DNA from: a virus
Taxonomy: Duplodnaviria; Caudoviricetes
Reading direction: 5' to 3' (one strand)
DNA length: 64,000 nucleotides
Virus record (IMG/VR): IMGVR_UViG_3300033463_000027
Coordinates: 32,001 to 96,000 of that record
Shown here: one piece after another, positions 1 to 53,935 of the stretch
Layout: each line of letters begins with the position of its first letter
Numbering within the stretch: the first letter of the stretch is position 1
Notes under the pieces: model-generated
Database searches by the model: none
Told to the model about the DNA's origin: nothing
What the model saw: the letters and a program-made list of their open reading frames with translations, nothing else
Program-made: the position numbers and the translations under genes

Positions 1-302
1 ATGGCGGTTAATGTATTTTGAGCTTCTGCAAAAGTAAGATTTTTATTCGTTACAATCAAACCAGCGGTTGCCATAGCTTGTGCTATTTCTGATTCGGTAG
101 CGCCATTAGCGGCTAATGTTTGTGCGATTAATTCATTATTCAAATTTTGAGAAGATAAAACTGCGGCTTGTTGCACTGTAGATAATTTGGACACCGACAC
201 AGCCATAGCTTTTATATCACTTGCTTCCCACGTACCTGTCCATGTGCTAACATTCAAAAAGCCCTTCAACATTTCCGTAGCTTTACCAATTTCTTTAAAC
301 AT
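1..302 (-). CDS. Tape measure protein, exon 2 (continues beyond window start)
   Basis: Open frame ATG TTT AAA GAA ATT GGT... (MFKEIGKATEMLKGFLNV...AQAMATAGL...), Ala/Gln-rich and helical. In frame with exon 1 after removing intron 303-2176. Confidence 0.8.
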   Translation of the reverse strand, partial: MFKEIGKATEMLKGFLNVSTWTGTWEASDIKAMAVSVSKLSTVQQAAVLSSQNLNNELIAQTLAANGATESEIAQAMATAGLIVTNKNLTFAEAQNTLTA

Positions 303-334
303 CAAACAATATTTAGGTTTTGTGGATAAACCTC

Positions 335-363
335 TTGACAAAAGCTACAAAAAATGATATAAT
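335..363 (+). promoter_or_regulatory. Consensus sigma-A promoter for intron cargo gene
   Basis: TTGACA-17bp-TATAAT with extended -10 TG. Confidence 0.8.
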
Positions 364-385
364 AGTCTAAAAGATTTTTGCGATA

Positions 386-817
386 TTGGGAGACAATAAA
401 AATATCATGTGGATTATAATTATTATCTTTTTTTTATTAGTGTTCCCCTCATTATGTGATTCTGACAAAAAGTCTTGTTTGTCAGGGATTGCAAGCATTG
501 TAATCATAGGAACTATACTATATGGATTATCAATACTAAATAATATATGGGATTCTACCATTGCAACTATTACTTATATTATTCTTGCCTTAATTACCAT
601 AACAATTATTTGGATTGCAATTCAAGCGTGTATTAGTATTTCCAAAAGAAATAAAGAAGAAGAGCTTATAAAAAAAATTCTATCAAATACAAAATGTCCT
701 TATTGTCAAAGCAATAAAACTGTTTTTTTAGAATATTATAGAATTAATCGTGACATGAATCAATTACAACTATATTGTCAAGACTGCGGAGAGACTTGGA
801 TTTATAAAGAAGAATAA
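386..817 (+). CDS. Membrane protein with C-terminal zinc ribbon (moron-like)
   Basis: About 3 hydrophobic segments followed by CPYC...CQDC; own promoter; start uncertain. Confidence 0.7.
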   Translation: MGDNKNIMWIIIIIFFLLVFPSLCDSDKKSCLSGIASIVIIGTILYGLSILNNIWDSTIATITYIILALITITIIWIAIQACISISKRNKEEELIKKILSNTKCPYCQSNKTVFLEYYRINRDMNQLQLYCQDCGETWIYKEE

Positions 818-853
818 GATGGATTGATTTATGCGGTCAATCAATCATAAAAA

Positions 854-982
854 TCACTTAAACTCAATCCCCAACTCTTGATAAGGTTCTTTCTCGCCAG
901 TTTCTTCATCAACCATGTACTTTATACCCACCTTATCAAATAACTCTTTCCATTCTTGTTCCCGGTTTTTTATTCTCTTCAT
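854..982 (-). CDS. Possible 42-aa peptide
   Basis: MKRIKNREQEWKELFDKVGIKYMVDEETGEKEPYQELGIEFK; weak RBS. Confidence 0.3.
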   Translation of the reverse strand: MKRIKNREQEWKELFDKVGIKYMVDEETGEKEPYQELGIEFK

Positions 983-1050
983 CAAACAAAGAGAGGAAAT
1001 CTCCAACAGAAGTAATATCTAACAATTTTGTTACAAGGAGTGTGACCACT

Positions 1051-1182
1051 ATGCGCGGCAAACAAAATCTCCCTCTTGGTTTTTCTATTGGTATGATTAT
1101 TGCGGGGTTATGCTTGGGTGTCCCCGGTATAATCGTATACCTTATAGGGTTCTTTATTATTGCAAGTATATTTAAACTATAA
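1051..1182 (+). CDS. 43-aa hydrophobic peptide
   Basis: AAGGAG RBS then MRGKQNLPLGFSIGMIIAGLCLGVPGIIVYLIGFFIIASIFKL. Confidence 0.55.
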   Translation: MRGKQNLPLGFSIGMIIAGLCLGVPGIIVYLIGFFIIASIFKL

Positions 1183-1210
1183 ATATTCTGTAAAAATTCA
1201 CAATGGCTAA

Positions 1211-1239
1211 TTGACAATCACAATACCATGTGTTATAAT
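1211..1239 (+). promoter_or_regulatory. Consensus sigma-A promoter
   Basis: TTGACA-17bp-TATAAT with TG extension. Confidence 0.8.
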
Positions 1240-1274
1240 TTATAAGCTAAAATATAACGGTGTTAATGGAGTGA

Positions 1275-1697
1275 TTGTTCGTGCTAAATCTTGACTATAA
1301 GTGTTTCCGTGATGTTCTGAATTATATTCACAAACACCTTGAAATGCCTACGTTTGTAGATTATCCTAACTCAATTTCAATACTTGAAATTTGTAACGCT
1401 CCTGAATTATCTGATTACAGCAAAGTACAAATCAAATATACAATCATGAAATTAATCGAAGCTGATTTTGTTTGCTGTCATGGTTTAGACAATAAAAGTA
1501 AGTCACCCAAATATATTTACATAGACGATATAACCATAAAGGGCTATAGTTTTCTTGCAAATTCAATGAACAAAATAGTTTGGAATAAAGCTCTATCATC
1601 AATTAAGTCAACAGGAATAGTTTCACTGAACGCATTTTGTATGTTAATGGACAAAATAGCCTTGAAAATTTCTATTGACTCACTACGTAAAATATGA
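1275..1697 (+). CDS. DUF2513/YjcQ-like winged-helix protein
   Basis: LDYKCFRDVL...IKYTIMKLIEADFV...IDDITIKGYSFL...VWNK pattern. Confidence 0.7.
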   Translation: MFVLNLDYKCFRDVLNYIHKHLEMPTFVDYPNSISILEICNAPELSDYSKVQIKYTIMKLIEADFVCCHGLDNKSKSPKYIYIDDITIKGYSFLANSMNKIVWNKALSSIKSTGIVSLNAFCMLMDKIALKISIDSLRKI

Positions 1698-1703
1698 ATC
1701 CAA

Positions 1704-1733
1704 GACACTATCGCAAGATAGTGTTATTATTTT
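1704..1733 (+). terminator. Hairpin terminator after cargo gene
   Basis: GACACTATC-GCAA-GATAGTGTT followed by a T-rich tract. Confidence 0.55.
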
Positions 1734-2176
1734 GCTGTAATCTTACCAACTCTTACAGCGAGAGTACCACATACATGAAAGTACAAGGTAAGTTTATACT
1801 ATAAATCAAAGTGCCATGCTCACTTGTTCCGAGCGCATCTTAGTACGATCAGCGTTTCATCTAAATCGTACCCACCTGTTGTCGCTACTGTGAGGGCTTA
1901 ACTTGTATAACAAGTTCTATCCCTGCGAATCCACCGAGCGCAACATTTTTACAATCCTAAACTGTCACCAGAGTAGGGGAGTAGTCACGTTGTACAGTGT
2001 TCCTCGCATATTGAGGTATAGCCTGTATAGATAGGATTTATACTATATTCTATACAGACATAGGATTTCTCCGTTTTACATTAGTGTATTTCACTAACGT
2101 CTGAAATAAAACTGCCTATCGACAAGAAACTTTTCAGATGGCGGCATATTCTGTTGAGGGTAAACAATTTAACCCT

Positions 2177-5100
2177 ACCGCCGTTTTTGAGAAGTGCTGT
2201 TGCACCTATTGTGCCAAGTATTGTTGGGATTGCGCCAAGTGTATCTACAAGATCAGTTGCAAGTTGCACTAACTGAGTAAATGCTTTTAAGAAACCAGTT
2301 ACTTTATCGGTGTCAAAGAATTTGCTGAAAAATTCTTGTCCTGATGTTTTAAGATTCTGTAAGGAACTGGCGAGGGTATTTACGGTCTTATTCGCTTCCC
2401 GCATAGCTGAACCAGCACCGCGCTCATAAGTTTCCATAATACCTTGCATGGAATCCCAATCTTGAAGAATTGCAGCAAGGGTATTAGCCCTATACTTGCC
2501 GCCCAGATCACTAAGCACCACAGCGCGTCTATCATCGCCTTGTGGTAACTCGTTAAATACTTTAGCCAATTCTCCAAGTAATTCAATAGGTGTTTTAAGC
2601 TGTTCAGCCCCATCAACTATTTTGTGCATTGAAATACCAACAGTATCAAATGCCTTAACGACTTGTTGATTCGTCACATCCGAAATTTGGAGCATGATTG
2701 ATTTGATCGCGTTACCAACGACGTTTCCACCCTGTTTGGTTCTTGCTTCTGCAATAGCAATCAAGGCAGACAATTCCTCAATACTCATTCCATACTGATG
2801 AGCAACAGATGCGGCTTCTTTGGTACCTTCGGTCATATCTTGCATTGACACTGCATATCGGTTTGTGATAAGGTTCTGTCCGTCGAGTATTTTTGTTAAT
2901 TTTTCAATGCTACCACCTAATTGATAAGCGGCATCAGTAGCAATCAAATAGTCTCTTGCGGTGCTATCGCTCACATCACCCGCTGCCTGAACCAATAGTG
3001 CGAGATCAGCCATCTTCTCCGACTGACCCTCGCCCAACGTTTCATAACCAGCTCTCGCCATTTCCTGAACGCCAGTCAGATAATTCTGAACACTAACACC
3101 ATACTTGCTTGCGGCATCAAATGCAGTCTCACCCAACTTCTCCAAACTCTCAACACTACGCTCAGAGGTCTTAGAGATTTCAGTCAAGATACTATCAACA
3201 TCTTTAAGAGTAACAAGGGCTTGCTTGCCTTCGTTTGTTATCATCATGAAAGCATTAGCAAGATTGAACCACCCTGCAAATTTCAAAGCCTTTTCTTTGA
3301 AGGTGTCCATAAAACTCTTACCAATCTGCCCTGTCTGCTGTGCAGTCCTATTCAGTTCGTTAAACTGTTGTGTCAGATGAGTAAGCGTTTGTTTATCTGC
3401 ACTCTGTATCTGTGTCTGCAAAGATTTCATGGACTGTCTCATACTCTCACTTGCACGAGTATTGTTTCTCAGCCATGTTTCGATCTTGTTGTTCAGATTA
3501 CTCTTTCTATCTTCAAGAGCCGCCGCATCTTTTACAGATTTCAAACTTGTTTGAAGTTCTTTGGCGCGTTCAGAAGTAGATTTGATTTGATTATCAAGTT
3601 GGGTAAATCCCGCAATAACCTCTTGTGTAGCACCTTCGCTTTGGAATCGCGCTTGCAACTGAGCATACTGATTAGAAAGATTAGTTATATCTTGTTGAAG
3701 TTGAACTACCTCGCTATTACCTGAGTTTTGTGCAAACAGACCCTTGCTTGTATCGGTCTGTAATTTCTTAATGGCATTATCTGTGGCTTGAATACTTTGC
3801 TCACTGTTTTGGAGAACCTTAGAATACTCTATAAAGGCTTGTATGGCTTGCTCCGCAGACTTTTTACTTTGGTCAAAAGTATCAGTAGTTGCATTTCTTA
3901 CTTCATTGACAGCTACAACAACAGTATCGTACTGATCTCTTAAAAGTTTGATGGTCGCGGGGTCTTGAATAGCTTTACCGTTGGTGTTAGAATTGGTCGC
4001 TTCACCATAAGCCTTATTGATTAAATCAGTAAGTTTTTGCCATTCTTTCTCTTGATTTTGTATTTCCTGTGTTTGTTGTCTCACTTCTTTTGTAGCCTGA
4101 GACAACATTTTATTAAACGTTTGTAAACTATACTTATCGGTTATATTTGCAAAAGCACCAAGTAAATCAGTAGTAGTAAAGGTTAGCTCATTTTCATTTA
4201 CTCCAAGCTCTTGCACTTTCTTAACTATTTCATCTAAAGAAGCGCTTGCTTTAGAATAATCAACATTAAATGAATTTCTTGCCGCATTTGATTGACTTAC
4301 CTTTTGTAAACTATCAAATTCAGCTTCCAACTTGCGTAAATCTTCATAAACAGTCCTAAAACTATTTCTATCGCCTACAGTTTGTAGCGCTTGATTGACA
4401 GCATGAATCCTATCTATAAAGTCTTGCGATGCAAGATTGGAATTTCTAACATCATTTTCAAACTCTTTGATTTCTTCGTTAAGAATAGCTTTTTGATTAA
4501 CTACGCTTTTACTTGACATTTGAGTGTCAGCGTATTGAGCACTTCTTATTACTTCTGCAAGCCGTTTAAATGCCGCTTCACGATCTTGTAAATCTTTAAT
4601 TTCTTGTTGATTTACAGTATGTCCACTCTTTATTGTTTGTTGGATTTCCTCAATTTTTTGTTTGAGTTTAGAATATTCGTCAATGTATGTATCAATTTGA
4701 GTTTTTAGTGTAGAACTCTGTTCGCCATATAAACCATTTTTTGAAATAACACCATTTTGAGTATCAACGCCCAACATTGGTTTGTTTTTTTCATGTGTTG
4801 AAGCAATGATGTTATTATATAAATCATTAATTCTTTGTAATTCTTTCTCTTGATTTTTAAGCTCTTTATTATACTCTTGGGTATCTTTAATAGCAGACTC
4901 ATTAAAAGCACCACCCATAAAATCAAAAGAAAATCCTTTAATTACATTAGCTTCGTCTTTAATTGATTGTAATGAATATCGGAATTTTAATATTTCATTC
5001 TCAGCATTTTTGGCAGAAATAGTAAAAGCATCTATCTTGCCGCTGGCATCAGTAATACCTTGTACATCAACATTCCCTTTGCCAAAAGCATTTTCATAAG

Positions 5101-5590
5101 CTTTTTGGACTTGATTCATAGCTAAAATTAAAGATTGCGCAGATGCTTCGGCGGGTTTGTTATTTATAACTGTAATACCATTGCTATCAATATTTTGACT
5201 GGAAGGTAATTTATTCCCAATCATTGCTTGAACTTGTTCTTTAGCAAGATGTTTATAGGTATCAGCTAACTGCTGTACAGCCTGTTTCGCCTGTTGTGTC
5301 TGTTGTGTAACGCTGCTCGTAGTATTCGCCACTTGTTGCATTTCATTCCGAACACTTTCTAAACCAGCATTATCAAAGCGTACTTCACCAACATTTATAG
5401 TGAGTTTTTGATTGTTTAACTGATCTTGAATACTCTTAACAGATAAAGAACTTGTATCTAAAATTGCTTTAACCTTAATCGCATATTCATCTTTAGTTTC
5501 AACATCTTTCTTAAACGCCGCAAACTGAGCCTTTATACTATCAAGACTTGTATGGTCAAGTTTAGCTCTAACATTAAAAATATAATCCAA
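2177..5590 (-). CDS. Tape measure protein, exon 1 (1138 codons)
   Basis: Long coiled coil plus phage tail tape-measure core (EISKTS...EMARAG...GNAIKSI); ORF tail after NGG is intron read-through. Confidence 0.9.
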
Positions 5591-27947: not shown

Positions 27948-30692
27948 TTAATCTTCCTTTCTCATAAGCATAGTTTGTTTACTAAATCTAAGCCCCCTGT
28001 AAATAATATCACCAAATTCATTTTTTACAAGATAAGTAAGCTGATAATCATTTATCGCAAGTAAATGGTCAATAATAATGTCCCCGCAAAGTCTCCATAC
28101 AAAACTCTTAGCTGCATTTGATGAATAACACAAGTCCACCATAATATTACACATAGAATCTTGATTTGGACAAACAAGTATACACTCTTTAAGAAACTCT
28201 TTAGATAACGCTTCAATAGAATCCTCATAATCCTGAGTTTCTTCCTTGCTACTTTTCTTATACTTGGTTTTCAATTGCTGTATCTCATGATTAAATTGCA
28301 AGTATAGTTTCTTAATGGCGTTATAATCCTTGCGACTATACTCAGCCCCACTCTTTAAAATACTACTATTAAAGTCGCTGGTTCTTTTTATTTGAGGGAC
28401 ATAACCATCAAATTCATTCTCAACCATGTGGCACAACCTATTCATAGTACTTTGCTCATCAAAGACAGGAAAGTATTTTGTATAGTTATCTACAAAGGAC
28501 TGCTGTTGCGGCGTGAGCTTAGTTCTTCTTAACAGATCGTCAACAATGGTTTTACCCTTGCCATAATCAAATATTCCACAAACCACACTATCCTTAATAT
28601 AGGACTTATAGTTTGCCATTTGCTCTGCATAAATGTAATTCATAAAATAGGGCTTCTTACAGGCGCAAATAGATTTCTCAAAATCTGTCTTGCAGTCCTC
28701 ATATACATACCATGATTTAGGCATGGGATCTGAAATAATTCCTTTGATCTTATCAATTTCATTTTGCTGATAAAGTTGCCCACACTTTATTCTATCTTCC
28801 AAGACTTGATATTCTTTACTTCTTTTATCAAATTGGGCTTGTACATCATACATTGCGGTAATTCTATTTGTAATTGCACCAATAGAATTACCAAAACCAT
28901 TTGAGTCTGCCCTTGCCAATAACTCTTCGGTAATAACTTTTTTCTCCGCTTTCTTTTGAACACAAACTATTGGAAGTGTATCGCGTGTATTGTTAAGTAA
29001 TATGTGATTATTGGTAGAAAATACCAAATCTCCGTCGTTATCGGCTCCGTTCCACGAATGAGTAAGGGTATCATGTGCGTTAATAATAAATACTTCGCTC
29101 ATATACTGATACCACTTAGCCACATCAGGATTGTTCACAACACTAACAACCTTAATATTTGAATGTGAACTCATAGGCGCACGAAAAGTAACCACCTTAT
29201 CAACAGATTCTTTTACCCAATAATGAGAATACACTTCTCCTGCTTTAAGCAAACCACAATTATTGTAATCTTCTTGTTCCTTTAACAATCCGAACATATG
29301 TTGACATAGTGCATAAGGATCGCCACTAAGTACCTGATAATTGCCATGAACATTAATAACACCAATTTTAGCATCGTTAATCTTCTTCTTAATCATAAGA
29401 TTAATCCTATCTATTACATAGGGGTCATTAATCATTCGTTTATCAATCATAAGGGCTTTAACATAATCGTCATTTAAATCATTTAACACGTTATCATCGG
29501 TAACAGACATTCCCCTTAAAAAAAGAATAGTCTTGTCTATGTCTTCATGCAGAACCGATTTGATCTCATTAACCGTAGGGCTTATCAACTCATAAATTTG
29601 TTCATCGGTCAAGTCATAACTCTGAATAAATTGATAGTTTAAGGTTCTTTCATTATCAAGATACTTGGGTGTAACCTTAGTAGCAGCATAGGTATAGCCA
29701 TAATATTTAAACCACTTTTCATAATCCTCATAGCTTGAATAGCTATCCCATAATTTAGCCATAGATACTGTGAGGATAAGTTCAATATCATTTATATTAT
29801 GTTCGTTGCCCCAAACATCAATGATAATATCAGTCTTAGCTATTTCTTTGGCAAACTCATGAAAGTCAAATGTGTATACCATGCCTTTAACAAAAGCATT
29901 ACGCAAGCAGCACCCTGACATTCTATAAGATAAGTCCAAATCATTACTCCATCTTTCTGACAACGCGGGAGAAATTAAACCAAAACCATCATTGGCATTT
30001 AGTTGGATCAGGGTGTCTTTTTCTTGTATCTTAGGGTCGCCACCAGCAATATCAGAGTCGCTTATCTCTAAAACATGAGACATAAATTCCAACTCCAAAT
30101 CAGAAACCACAACAACACCTTTGGGGTCTGATAAGGGAATAGATGAACTACACACAAGACTTTTATATGCTTCAAACTTAGCAGGAACTATTTCTTTTGT
30201 AGTGTCTCTGCCACAGTTCATACGCTCATTAAGTTGCTCCCATATAGAAGTATATATCACGATGGACTTTTTTACGCCATTAGGTGTTCCCACCAACCTC
30301 TTGAAGTGCTTACCATTAAAACCAAATCCTTGTGATAATACTTCCATATCATCAGGTTTATCTATAATCACACAAAGATATTCGTTGACTATCTGTATCT
30401 TTTCAAGTTCCTTGTAGATGTTATTGATCTTAGTTTTGGTATCAGATTGCCTTTCACCTTTACGGATTAGTTTTAATTCTTTGTGCAATCTTTTATAGGC
30501 AAGATTGTTTTCTTCTCTATTAGTTTTATTAATATCATCAATAAATCGAAGTATCTGACTGTCAGCTAATGTAATAAGTTCTTGCTTTTTTCTTGCATCT
30601 GAAACTGTTAAATTAAATGAGAGTTTGGATTTTATAATTTCCTTACTATGAATTTTATAAACATACCGTTGGTACATTTGCTGTCTTGCCAA
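27948..30692 (-). CDS. yonO: YonO-like single-subunit RNA polymerase (double-psi barrel, RdRP-related)
   Basis: DGFGLIS, FRAP, catalytic GADNDGD, GAITN, IDKIKG motifs. Confidence 0.85.
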   Translation of the reverse strand: MARQQMYQRYVYKIHSKEIIKSKLSFNLTVSDARKKQELITLADSQILRFIDDINKTNREENNLAYKRLHKELKLIRKGERQSDTKTKINNIYKELEKIQIVNEYLCVIIDKPDDMEVLSQGFGFNGKHFKRLVGTPNGVKKSIVIYTSIWEQLNERMNCGRDTTKEIVPAKFEAYKSLVCSSSIPLSDPKGVVVVSDLELEFMSHVLEISDSDIAGGDPKIQEKDTLIQLNANDGFGLISPALSERWSNDLDLSYRMSGCCLRNAFVKGMVYTFDFHEFAKEIAKTDIIIDVWGNEHNINDIELILTVSMAKLWDSYSSYEDYEKWFKYYGYTYAATKVTPKYLDNERTLNYQFIQSYDLTDEQIYELISPTVNEIKSVLHEDIDKTILFLRGMSVTDDNVLNDLNDDYVKALMIDKRMINDPYVIDRINLMIKKKINDAKIGVINVHGNYQVLSGDPYALCQHMFGLLKEQEDYNNCGLLKAGEVYSHYWVKESVDKVVTFRAPMSSHSNIKVVSVVNNPDVAKWYQYMSEVFIINAHDTLTHSWNGADNDGDLVFSTNNHILLNNTRDTLPIVCVQKKAEKKVITEELLARADSNGFGNSIGAITNRITAMYDVQAQFDKRSKEYQVLEDRIKCGQLYQQNEIDKIKGIISDPMPKSWYVYEDCKTDFEKSICACKKPYFMNYIYAEQMANYKSYIKDSVVCGIFDYGKGKTIVDDLLRRTKLTPQQQSFVDNYTKYFPVFDEQSTMNRLCHMVENEFDGYVPQIKRTSDFNSSILKSGAEYSRKDYNAIKKLYLQFNHEIQQLKTKYKKSSKEETQDYEDSIEALSKEFLKECILVCPNQDSMCNIMVDLCYSSNAAKSFVWRLCGDIIIDHLLAINDYQLTYLVKNEFGDIIYRGLRFSKQTMLMRKED

Positions 30693-53657: not shown

Positions 53658-53935
53658 GTCAATAACTCACTGCTTATAGAAGCAGGAGCTTGTAAATGCT
53701 CAAATTGACTACCCTAAGTTCTTCAAGAACTACGTTATGCAAGAATTGTATAAGTTCTTTTATACTAAATAGTTACCCGTGAGCGTTATGCCTAACTTGC
53801 GGCTCTAAGGCAAATGGTTAAATAGTTCTGTGGAGTAGGAACAGTGCTGTTCGCAGTAAAACCTTGCAATAACATTGGGGAAGGCATTTAACAGCTTTGT
53901 ATGTGCTGTCTTACAGAGTAGAACATACAATTTGA
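53658..53935 (+). ncRNA. omegaRNA (HEARO-like) scaffold
   Basis: GTCAA...TTGACT...CTACGTT...AACATTGGGGAAGG motifs upstream of iscB. Confidence 0.8.

Follow-up and report, generated by a model that had tools for sequence, protein, structure and literature searches.

A probable group I-type intron with an antisense expression slot in the tape measure gene of an SPbeta-like siphovirus

Group I introns of phages are textbook carriers of homing endonucleases, and in the T4 nrdD (sunY) intron, as in other phage introns, open reading frames (ORFs) are looped out of P9 or P6. Morons, as reportedly defined by Hendrix and colleagues, are promoter-gene-terminator cassettes that sit between late genes and are expressed from the prophage. 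Tape measure genes are among the genes known to be interrupted, as prophages of the Bacillus cereus group have tape measure introns (TMP-IVS1, IVS2, IVS3a/b) that are of group I (Tourasse and Kolsto 2008, PMC2504315), are of type IA1 or IA2, and in some cases are without a complete homing endonuclease gene (PMC2504315). In the IStrons, CdISt1 of Clostridioides difficile and BcISt1 of Bacillus cereus, the 3′ part of the intron holds an insertion sequence (IS) element (PMC4227781, PMC3984707). The locus considered here lies in a 64,000-nucleotide (nt) stretch of phage DNA, ‘the window’ in what follows, which is G000:C1:32001-96000 of a 139.5-kb IMG/VR virus record (IMGVR_UViG_3300033463_000027) that is 97% complete. 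Very probably the tape measure gene at this locus, that of a temperate SPbeta-like siphovirus, is split by a group I-type intron with an antisense expression slot. The predicted intron of 1,874 nt extends from 2176 to 303 on the minus strand of the window, and is called OWN where it has to be told from its homologues; L and P numbers denote related loci and related proteins.

The host appears to be a 139.5-kb SPbeta-like siphovirus, and as tyrosine integrases are encoded in its genome a temperate lifestyle is plausible. The coding parts of its tape measure gene are:

2177..5590, minus strand: tape measure exon 1, ~1,138 codons
1..302 and on past the window start, minus strand: tape measure exon 2, 1,127 codons, ending at G000 position 28919

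Unspliced, the exon 1 ORF (5590-2081, minus strand, 1,169 codons) goes 31 codons into the intron before meeting a stop at 2083-2081, and a second minus-strand ORF, of 1,140 codons, runs from 341 downwards past the window start. By sequence comparison the two are halves of one tape measure gene. Exon 1 has the PhageMin_Tail domain (PF10145, amino acids (aa) 825-1031, E 1.3e-18), and with tblastn the C-terminal 314 residues of its ORF are 25-31% identical to SPbeta-like tape measure proteins, the matches being to SPbeta-like phages of Bacillus, Staphylococcus, Mammaliicoccus and Lactococcus. For exon 2, an exhaustive phmmer search from its first 330 residues gave 550 matches; the single-ORF tape measure proteins found with exon 2 are 2,355-3,548 aa, the two ORFs joined come to ~2,265 residues, and each half aligns colinearly with the long single-ORF proteins P0003 and P0005. 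Two uninterrupted relatives, P0010 and P0006, go straight across the junction (...TILGAGGIFALFKNGGVIKELGIAQ... in the phmmer match alignment), the intron-less reading at the site is KNGG-VI-KELG, and the DNA of L022 is an empty site, AAAAATGGCGGT-GTTATTAAAGAA (also written TTATTTAAAAATGGCGGT-GTTATTAAAGAACTTGGT). All three span the exact junction that the original prediction had deduced from guide pairing and a restored frame.

Many other relatives (P0011, which starts ‘MVFKELG’, P0012, P0013, P0007 and P0008) begin at or near the junction, which points to an interruption of their genes at this site too. Could it be instead that such starts, as placed by gene callers, are real, that the ribozyme is a decayed relic, that the 1.87 kb is an intergenic moron island, and that the tape measure is made as two polypeptides, exon 1 with a 31-residue tail and exon 2 from ATG 302 or TTG 341? 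However, inspection of the sequence ahead of ATG 302 and TTG 341 reveals no Shine-Dalgarno sequence, so neither candidate start has a ribosome binding site, and uninterrupted relatives do exist. For these and further reasons given below, synthesis as two polypeptides is considered highly improbable. As a separate matter, in L022 (positions 1-1264) the tape measure frame is broken again ~60 codons upstream of the empty site; the break, preceded by a 396-aa ORF with weak helix-turn-helix matches and without an Rfam match, may be a second intron site.

What would bring the two exons together is a single guide. The elements at the splice sites are as follows, A2 being a MAFFT alignment of 8 intron sequences:

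2182-2177/2145-2140, minus strand: P1 (alignment A2)
2150-2146, minus strand: P10 guide (alignment A2)
303..307, minus strand: GUU, which may pair with AAC 1828-1826 as P9.0, then U and the terminal G 303 (sequence reading)

Every sequence feature named in the original prediction is found at the position given for it. The guide, GAAUAUGCCGCC (2151-2140), pairs with both GGCGGU (2182-2177) and AUGUU(U) (302-297). In P1 its GCCGCC (2145-2140) pairs with GGCGGU, giving U.G at the last exon base, and in P10 its AAUAU (2150-2146) pairs with AUGUU (302-298). The terminal G had been placed 1.4 kb from the core and is indeed found there, as G303, directly before the 3′ exon; the 3′ splice site is thus 1.4 kb from the core. 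If the exons are joined after U2177 and G303 the frame is preserved (...LLKNGG-MFKEIGK...), and when every in-frame pairing of a U with a G splice site was scanned the guide was the sole match. In 7 members P1 goes along with the exon, its first pair (5-53) being GC in 3, AU in 2, CG in 1 and UA in 1, with the variants GGCGGU/GCCGCC, AUCGGU/GCCGAU, UUCGGU/GCCGAA and GUCGGU/GCCGAC. At the splice site itself the wobble is U.G in five members and C.A, which is isosteric to U.G, in the other two (CUCGGC/ACCGAG in L008, GUCGGC/ACCGAC in L011). P10 is 5-9 base pairs (bp) long, for instance AUGUU/AAUAU (OWN), AUAUU/AAUAU (L006) and AUAGUUAAG/CUUAACUAU (L008), and in L008 it shifts along with exon 2.

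The complete introns in which frame restoration was checked are OWN, L006 and L008, and splicing restores it in 3/3. The 5′ exon is off the contig in L005, L004 and L025, and in each the predicted 3′ splice site opens onto the exon 2 frame (VFKELG, VTLKNLF and IIADFG, respectively); exact frame restoration in three members and the correct opening in three more are difficult to square with a relic between two separate genes. The sequence ...GUU(U/C)G at the 3′ splice site is kept in OWN, L004, L005, L006, L008 and L025, and its GUU would form P9.0 with AAC 1828-1826 past P7, a pairing that is invariant and so is put forward without covariation.

The core itself is best introduced through its helices:

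1734..2176, minus strand: ribozyme part of the intron, 443 nt (alignment A2, pair counts)
Within 2176-1734, minus strand: P1a, P2, P6/P6a, P9 and P9.1 (alignment A2)
2098-2092/2086-2080, minus strand: P2.1 (alignment A2)
2017-2014/1877-1874, minus strand: P3, NCCU/AGGN, with AU, GC, GU and UA seen
2008-2003/1929-1924, minus strand: P4, UGCGAG/UUCGCA, with GC/UA and AU/GC switches
1999-1995/1936-1932, minus strand: P5, covaries
1989-1984/1944-1939, minus strand: P5a, covaries
1977-1969/1964-1956, minus strand: P5b, covaries, GNRA loop GUGA 1968-1965
1890-1883/1835-1830, minus strand: P7, invariant
1871-1865/1849-1843, minus strand: P8, covaries
1792-1787/1747-1742, minus strand: pseudoknot PK1, CUUACC/GGUAAG
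1759-1754/1739-1734, minus strand: pseudoknot PK2, GCUGUA/UACAGC

Over the 105 pairs in 21 helices from which the A2 pair counts come, 93.2% of cells are paired, as against 34-44% when the partners are slid 1-3 columns; 63 of the 105 pairs have changes on both sides, and none of 500 shuffles matches any measure. P3, P4, P5, P5a, P5b, P6a and P8 are 94-100% paired with double changes, and P2.1, P1a and P6a also covary. Helix order is P3-P4-P5-P6-P7-P3′-P8-P7′ with P3 and P7 interleaved, as in the group I core. The core junctions CAAUAUGCGAGGAA, UUCGCAGGG, UCACAG... and AAGAU... are similar to the classical P, Q, R and S elements; sequences of this kind, a wobble at the 5′ splice site and a terminal G are defining features of group I. 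A 1.87-kb group I intron in the tape measure gene, as first proposed, is thus sustained by covariation of the homologues from P1 to P9 and by the uninterrupted relatives, and a catalytic core set at 2176-~1730 agrees with the structured part, 2176-1734. Compensatory changes keep all helices, the pairing of P1 with the exon included, across divergent hosts, and every invariant core position of the family is retained in OWN; both tell against decay, and the former points to selection on a working ribozyme.

In several respects the fold departs from that of familiar phage introns. There are no P7.1/P7.2 helices, as P7 is joined to P3′ by ACAAC (5 nt) only and P3′ to P8 by 2 nt, so it is not of the IA type usual in phages; it has instead a P5-P5a-P5b arm with an A-rich bulge, UAAAAAU, alongside a GNRA loop that is GUGA, GCGA or GAAA among members. 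In the P9 domain the loops of two hairpins, P9.1 and P9.2, pair with two downstream segments to form PK1 and PK2, both of which covary in seven sequences. An atypical P7 with an extra bulged U had been noticed at the outset. P7 is CAG-U-AGCG/CGCUCG, i.e., CAGUAGCG/CGCUCG, in which the guanosine-site pattern C-(A)-G...C-G is present and the extra base is bulged directly 3′ of that G; it is U1887 in OWN and C in L025, as expected of an unpaired base. Some earlier drawings were discarded, namely hand-drawn P4 UUGCG/CGCAG, P3 CCUACU/GGUGGG and a CCUC...GAGG hairpin, which are without covariation in L005 and other homologues, and a first core pattern, TCACAGTAGCG...AAGATGCGCT, which was too strict and had 0 matches. 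No paralogue of the core is present in the phage’s own genome.

How is a 3′ splice site so distant from the core returned to it? Two elements bear on this:

315..333, minus strand: 3′-terminal hairpin AGGUUU/AAACCU, loop AUCCACA, CCACA being 325-321 (alignment A5)
1767..1771, minus strand: UGUGG, single-stranded between P9.1 and P9.2, proposed partner of the hairpin loop (class-level covariation)

The hairpin has 6 bp and an invariant loop, (A/U)UCCACA, and is 18 nt ahead of the terminal G. Its stems, compared in alignment A5, are AGGUUU/AAACCU (OWN), GUAAAU/AUUUAC (L005), AUAGAU/GUCUAU (L025) and AUGUAA/UUACAU (L004), with 91.7% of cells paired and 5/6 pairs changed on both sides. The loop CCACA (325-321) is complementary to UGUGG (1771-1767). 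A second class has CUUGA(C) at the UGUGG columns and UCAAG 18-21 nt ahead of the terminal G (L008, L019, L020), a third has GUUUG with CAAAC 27 nt ahead of it (L021), and L006, which is without the P9 extension, has a perfect 15-bp stem across the cargo instead. This suggests that pairing of hairpin loop to core is a long-range tether, a deduction at the level of classes and not from counted pairs. For the same purpose the original prediction had offered a long-range stem, UUGGUAAGAUUACA/UGUAGCUUUUGUCAA. The 14-bp complementarity exists, but it is not accepted as a native pairing because GGUAAG (1747-1742) and UACAGC (1739-1734) sit in PK1 and PK2, with which it clashes, and because no more than 5-7 bp are found again in L005 and L025. 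The antisense -35 box UGUCAA was also considered as a 3′ anchor, and rejected as L021 and the OWN-type introns show two separate elements.

In the stretch between ribozyme and 3′ hairpin all convincing genes, from 1733 to 334, lie opposite to the tape measure gene, on the plus strand:

335..363, plus strand: first antisense sigma-A-type promoter, TTGACA-17-TATAAT, TG-extended, 12/12 matches
407..817, plus strand: cargo gene 1, 136 aa, hydrophobic N-terminal part, C-terminal CPxC...CxxCG zinc ribbon
818..1034, minus strand: conserved spacer, frameshifted remnant of a small sense-strand ORF, 91% identity to L004:61-275
1051..1182, plus strand: cargo gene 2, 43-aa hydrophobic peptide, AGGAG ribosome binding site, homologue in L025
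1211..1239, plus strand: second antisense sigma-A-type promoter, TTGACA-17-TATAAT, TG-extended, 12/12 matches
1281..1697, plus strand: cargo gene 3, DUF2513, 138 aa, GTG start behind GGAG (PF10711 E 1.1e-13; phrog_585)
1704..1725, plus strand: intrinsic terminator of the antisense cargo unit, 9 nt from the last pair of the ribozyme

The first promoter is 32 nt inside the 3′ splice site. Cargo gene 1 has weak zinc-ribbon matches in the family scan and a 139-aa homologue in L025, and the corresponding place in L025 is taken by a homologue, P0156, that is 96% identical to the product of cargo gene 3. Cargo ORFs were scanned against Pfam, PHROGs, NCBIfam and PADLOC. In accord with the initial remark that no homing endonuclease is recognisable, these scans found none (LAGLIDADG, GIY-YIG, HNH, His-Cys, PD-(D/E)xK, EDxHD) in any intron ORF of OWN or its relatives, and no transposase or defence family was recognised there either; on DUF2513 the literature searched held nothing relevant. 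The small sense ORF of the spacer is intact in L004 (28-240, plus strand; 70 aa, ...EQEWKELFDKVGMKYMVDEETGEKEPYQELGIEVK), and the copy in the window is frameshifted by an extra base in an A run. Elsewhere in the window, at 53658-53892 on the plus strand, is a full-length HEARO RNA (RF02033, 108.6 bits). HEARO is a guide-type RNA tied to IS200/IS605-family HNH/IscB elements, one of which the phage therefore probably carries.

Several observations weigh against a functional group I intron that carries expressed genes, and need to be set beside the evidence for it. A guide match like that above is also found in 21/300 shuffles (p ~0.07), so guide pairing alone is weak evidence. The bulged base of P7 adjoins the G-binding pair, and P7, its 3′ strand included, is invariant and consequently carries no covariation. 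Single-sequence folds of the 3′ hairpins are thermodynamically weak and not significant alone, the loop-to-core pairing rests on three sequence classes only, and family scans gave no functional assignment for the three cargo proteins. The Rfam group I model, RF00028, which had been suggested as a check, has no match at E<=10 on 1700-2200 or 1-2600, and none at E<=1 on five homologous loci, its best score in the phage’s own genome being 11 bits, away from the intron; at the gathering threshold, too, Rfam yielded no group I match. Such non-recognition would suit a decayed relic, as would the 5′-truncated copies that occur in bacterial metagenome-assembled genomes (MAGs). However, a match to RF00028 is a library match and not a defining structural feature, and the structural tests are not overturned by it. 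On another contig of this family, L014, positions 1-266 (plus strand) hold a canonical group I intron, truncated where the contig ends, that RF00028 does recognise (78.7 bits); the tape measure intron follows ~8.5 kb downstream of it on this contig of a metagenomic phage, so one phage carries both the Rfam type and the unrecognised type.

About ten homologous introns were found in metagenomes, most at the same codon. The search key was a conserved 20-mer, CCTCACAGTAGCGACAACAG, and the 3′ strand of P7 was not in the search pattern; it matched one IMG/VR contig (L006), nine metagenome contigs and three Ruminococcus/Clostridia MAG contigs. L006, L008, L010, L011, L012 and L014 have divergent tape measure genes that the element interrupts at this same K-N-x-G codon. 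3′ parts of homologous introns are present in L004 (the contig of P0008, with a related 3′ end), in L005 (the contig of P0011, which starts within sequence 84.6% identical to 2008-1737) and in L025 (reached via the DUF2513 homologue P0156, and 97.8% identical to 1035-2110). L007 and L009 are fragments and L013 proved to be a chance match. In 50,697 phage records, searched with megablast and blastn, there is no DNA similarity to the region, the core or exon 2, the sole exception in these searches, tblastn included, being distant tape measure matches of exon 1; a search of viral contigs with exon 2 for related loci found none. In L015 (3527-3952, plus strand) a core nearly identical to that of L008, with a different 5′ part, follows two unrelated ORFs outside any tape measure context, and could be an ectopic copy or a chimeric assembly. 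The three Ruminococcus/Clostridia MAG loci are 5′-truncated, L019 and L021 being without the 5′ exon and P1 and L020 lacking everything up to P4; they retain an antisense zinc-ribbon gene, its promoter and the 3′ splice region, and look like decaying prophages that kept the cargo.

The frame of the slot is conserved and its content is not. A near-consensus antisense promoter is just inside the 3′ splice site in five members, OWN included, those of L004, L005, L006 and L008 having 11-12/12 matches with TG and being 30-60 nt inside it, and antisense terminators adjoin the ribozyme in L006 and L008 as well. Cargo, 0.5-3.4 kb in the family and mostly antisense, differs in every member: L006 has one 152-aa zinc-ribbon protein, L005 three small, unrelated genes, in L008 a zinc-ribbon protein is joined by ORFs on the sense strand that are ComF-like or unknown, and L010, L012 and L014 carry other ORFs; in four members sense-strand ORFs come directly after the core. 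L004 shares only 217 nt of spacer with OWN, at 91% identity. L025 shares with OWN the DUF2513 gene, the 43-aa gene and a homologue of the 136-aa gene, and adds three antisense genes and one sense ORF (~3.4 kb). One of its extra cargo genes (L025:3627-4487, plus strand) encodes a 286-aa protein with a HELFH (HExxH-like) motif. Though ribozyme and adjoining cargo are 97.8% identical in the two, exon 2 starts IIADFGASV... in L025 and MFKEIGKAT... in OWN, which suggests recombination at a point within the intron, with exchange of the distal tape measure half as well. The original prediction suggested looking in related phages for variable cargo at the same site, and cargo does differ in each, even the nearly identical L025. 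Its inference that the loop is a neutral site for accessory genes holds as to that variability, but with a conserved antisense promoter and terminator frame the site is not merely neutral.

Might the antisense cassette, rather than being a passenger in a passive bay, be itself the core of the element, either selfish or selected? A zinc-ribbon protein with the C-terminus ...GLFSKTAKSQFKCxNCGYKW, for which family scans gave no functional assignment, is present in 7 of the ~13 members (L006, L008, L010, L011, L019, L020, L021). Were its gene ancestral, the cassette could aid spread or retention of the intron, or antisense transcription could regulate tape measure expression; that one family fills the slot so often, that its gene is kept with ribozyme remnants in MAG copies without the 5′ exon, and that the promoter and terminator frame is conserved, all lend themselves to this. 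However, the window does not have that gene, and the candidacy of the 136-aa protein of OWN as a member of the family failed, only the zinc-ribbon pattern being shared (hhalign probability 3.9%). In no cargo protein was a nuclease, maturase or recombinase domain found, and the terminator beside the ribozyme speaks against antisense read-through into exon 1. Overall, a cassette-centred element is thought unlikely, though distinctly less so than synthesis of the tape measure as two polypeptides.

If the locus is, as favoured here, a splicing intron with an antisense slot, events can be envisaged as follows. During late transcription the first 443 nt would fold into the ribozyme, with P1-P9, a P5abc-like arm in which a GNRA loop caps P5b, and two pseudoknots in the P9 domain. 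The guide GAAUAUGCCGCC would line up both exons, first in P1 with its U.G wobble and then in P10, the distant 3′ splice site probably being returned by the pairing of the CCACA loop with UGUGG in the P9 domain, by P9.0 and by P10. Attack by guanosine after U2177, with the exons then joined after G303, would yield a single ~2,265-aa tape measure protein reading ...KNGG-MFKEIG..., with the junction peptide ...LLKNGGMFKEIGK.... We infer the splicing of 2176-303 from structure, and promoter activity and lysogenic expression of the cargo are likewise predicted from their signals. On the opposite strand, the stretch from ribozyme to 3′ hairpin would be an expression slot, in which the genes for a membrane zinc-ribbon protein, a 43-aa membrane peptide and the DUF2513 protein are transcribed from two consensus sigma-A promoters, and a terminator halts antisense transcription just short of the ribozyme. 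With its own promoters and terminator the cargo would be expressible from the prophage apart from the late operon, as morons are, and the content of the slot would turn over via recombination between conserved flanks. What the cargo does can only be guessed at, an envelope or exclusion function expressed from the prophage being the likeliest role, though at well below even odds.

A broader proposal, to which we would give somewhat less than even weight, is that the introns of this family serve as a dedicated platform for gene delivery, with the antisense slot built into the ribozyme, and are not parasites stripped of their nuclease. The promoter would then be lodged inside the 3′-terminal element and the terminator beside the core, prophage-expressed genes being parked in an essential late gene, and the conserved ribozyme and 3′ element would act as homology arms that swap both cargo and the distal tape measure half. 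L025, with its near-identical ribozyme and different cargo and exon 2, suggests that the intron is also a seam at which tail-length modules recombine. Self-splicing introns in essential genes would join the places where temperate phages keep moron-like genes, and imprecise deletion of such cargo would destroy the tape measure gene. There is also a practical side. A widespread and structurally distinctive ribozyme, with its P5abc-like arm, P9 double pseudoknot, extra bulge in the guanosine helix and proposed loop-to-core tether across kilobases of cargo, is missed by the standard RNA library, and a rule for annotators follows, that ‘split’ tape measure genes in gut and rumen phages be joined.

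In the full-text literature searched, an incomplete collection, no paper was found on phage introns with promoter-driven antisense accessory genes, and nothing relevant on intron-borne morons or antisense cargo. The closest relatives in kind are the TMP-IVS introns, which are also of group I, in the tape measure gene of temperate Firmicutes phages, have P1 and P10 adapted to the site, and in some members lack a complete homing endonuclease gene. However, they are described without accessory cargo, whereas the present family has 0.5-3.4 kb of it, promoter-driven and mostly antisense, and is itself without P7.1/P7.2, with a P5abc-like arm and a pseudoknotted P9, and missed by Rfam. The IStrons share the arrangement of a 5′ ribozyme core and a large non-endonuclease insert between core and 3′ splice site, but theirs is a transposon, of IS200/IS605 type, by which the element spreads to many sites, while the introns here, in which scans found no TnpA/TnpB, are fixed at one site in one gene and hold variable accessory genes with antisense promoters. 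The T4 nrdD (sunY) intron also has an ORF insert 3′ of the core and a 3′ splice site far from it; its ORFs are sense-strand homing endonucleases, in contrast to the three antisense genes of OWN with no recognisable nuclease. With morons the likeness is that of an autonomous promoter-gene-terminator unit in the late region of a temperate phage, variable among relatives. Morons, however, sit between genes, and the present cassette is inside an essential one, where it would be tolerated only via RNA self-splicing. Here a whole intron family carries interchangeable accessory genes, mostly antisense, with promoters and terminators of their own.

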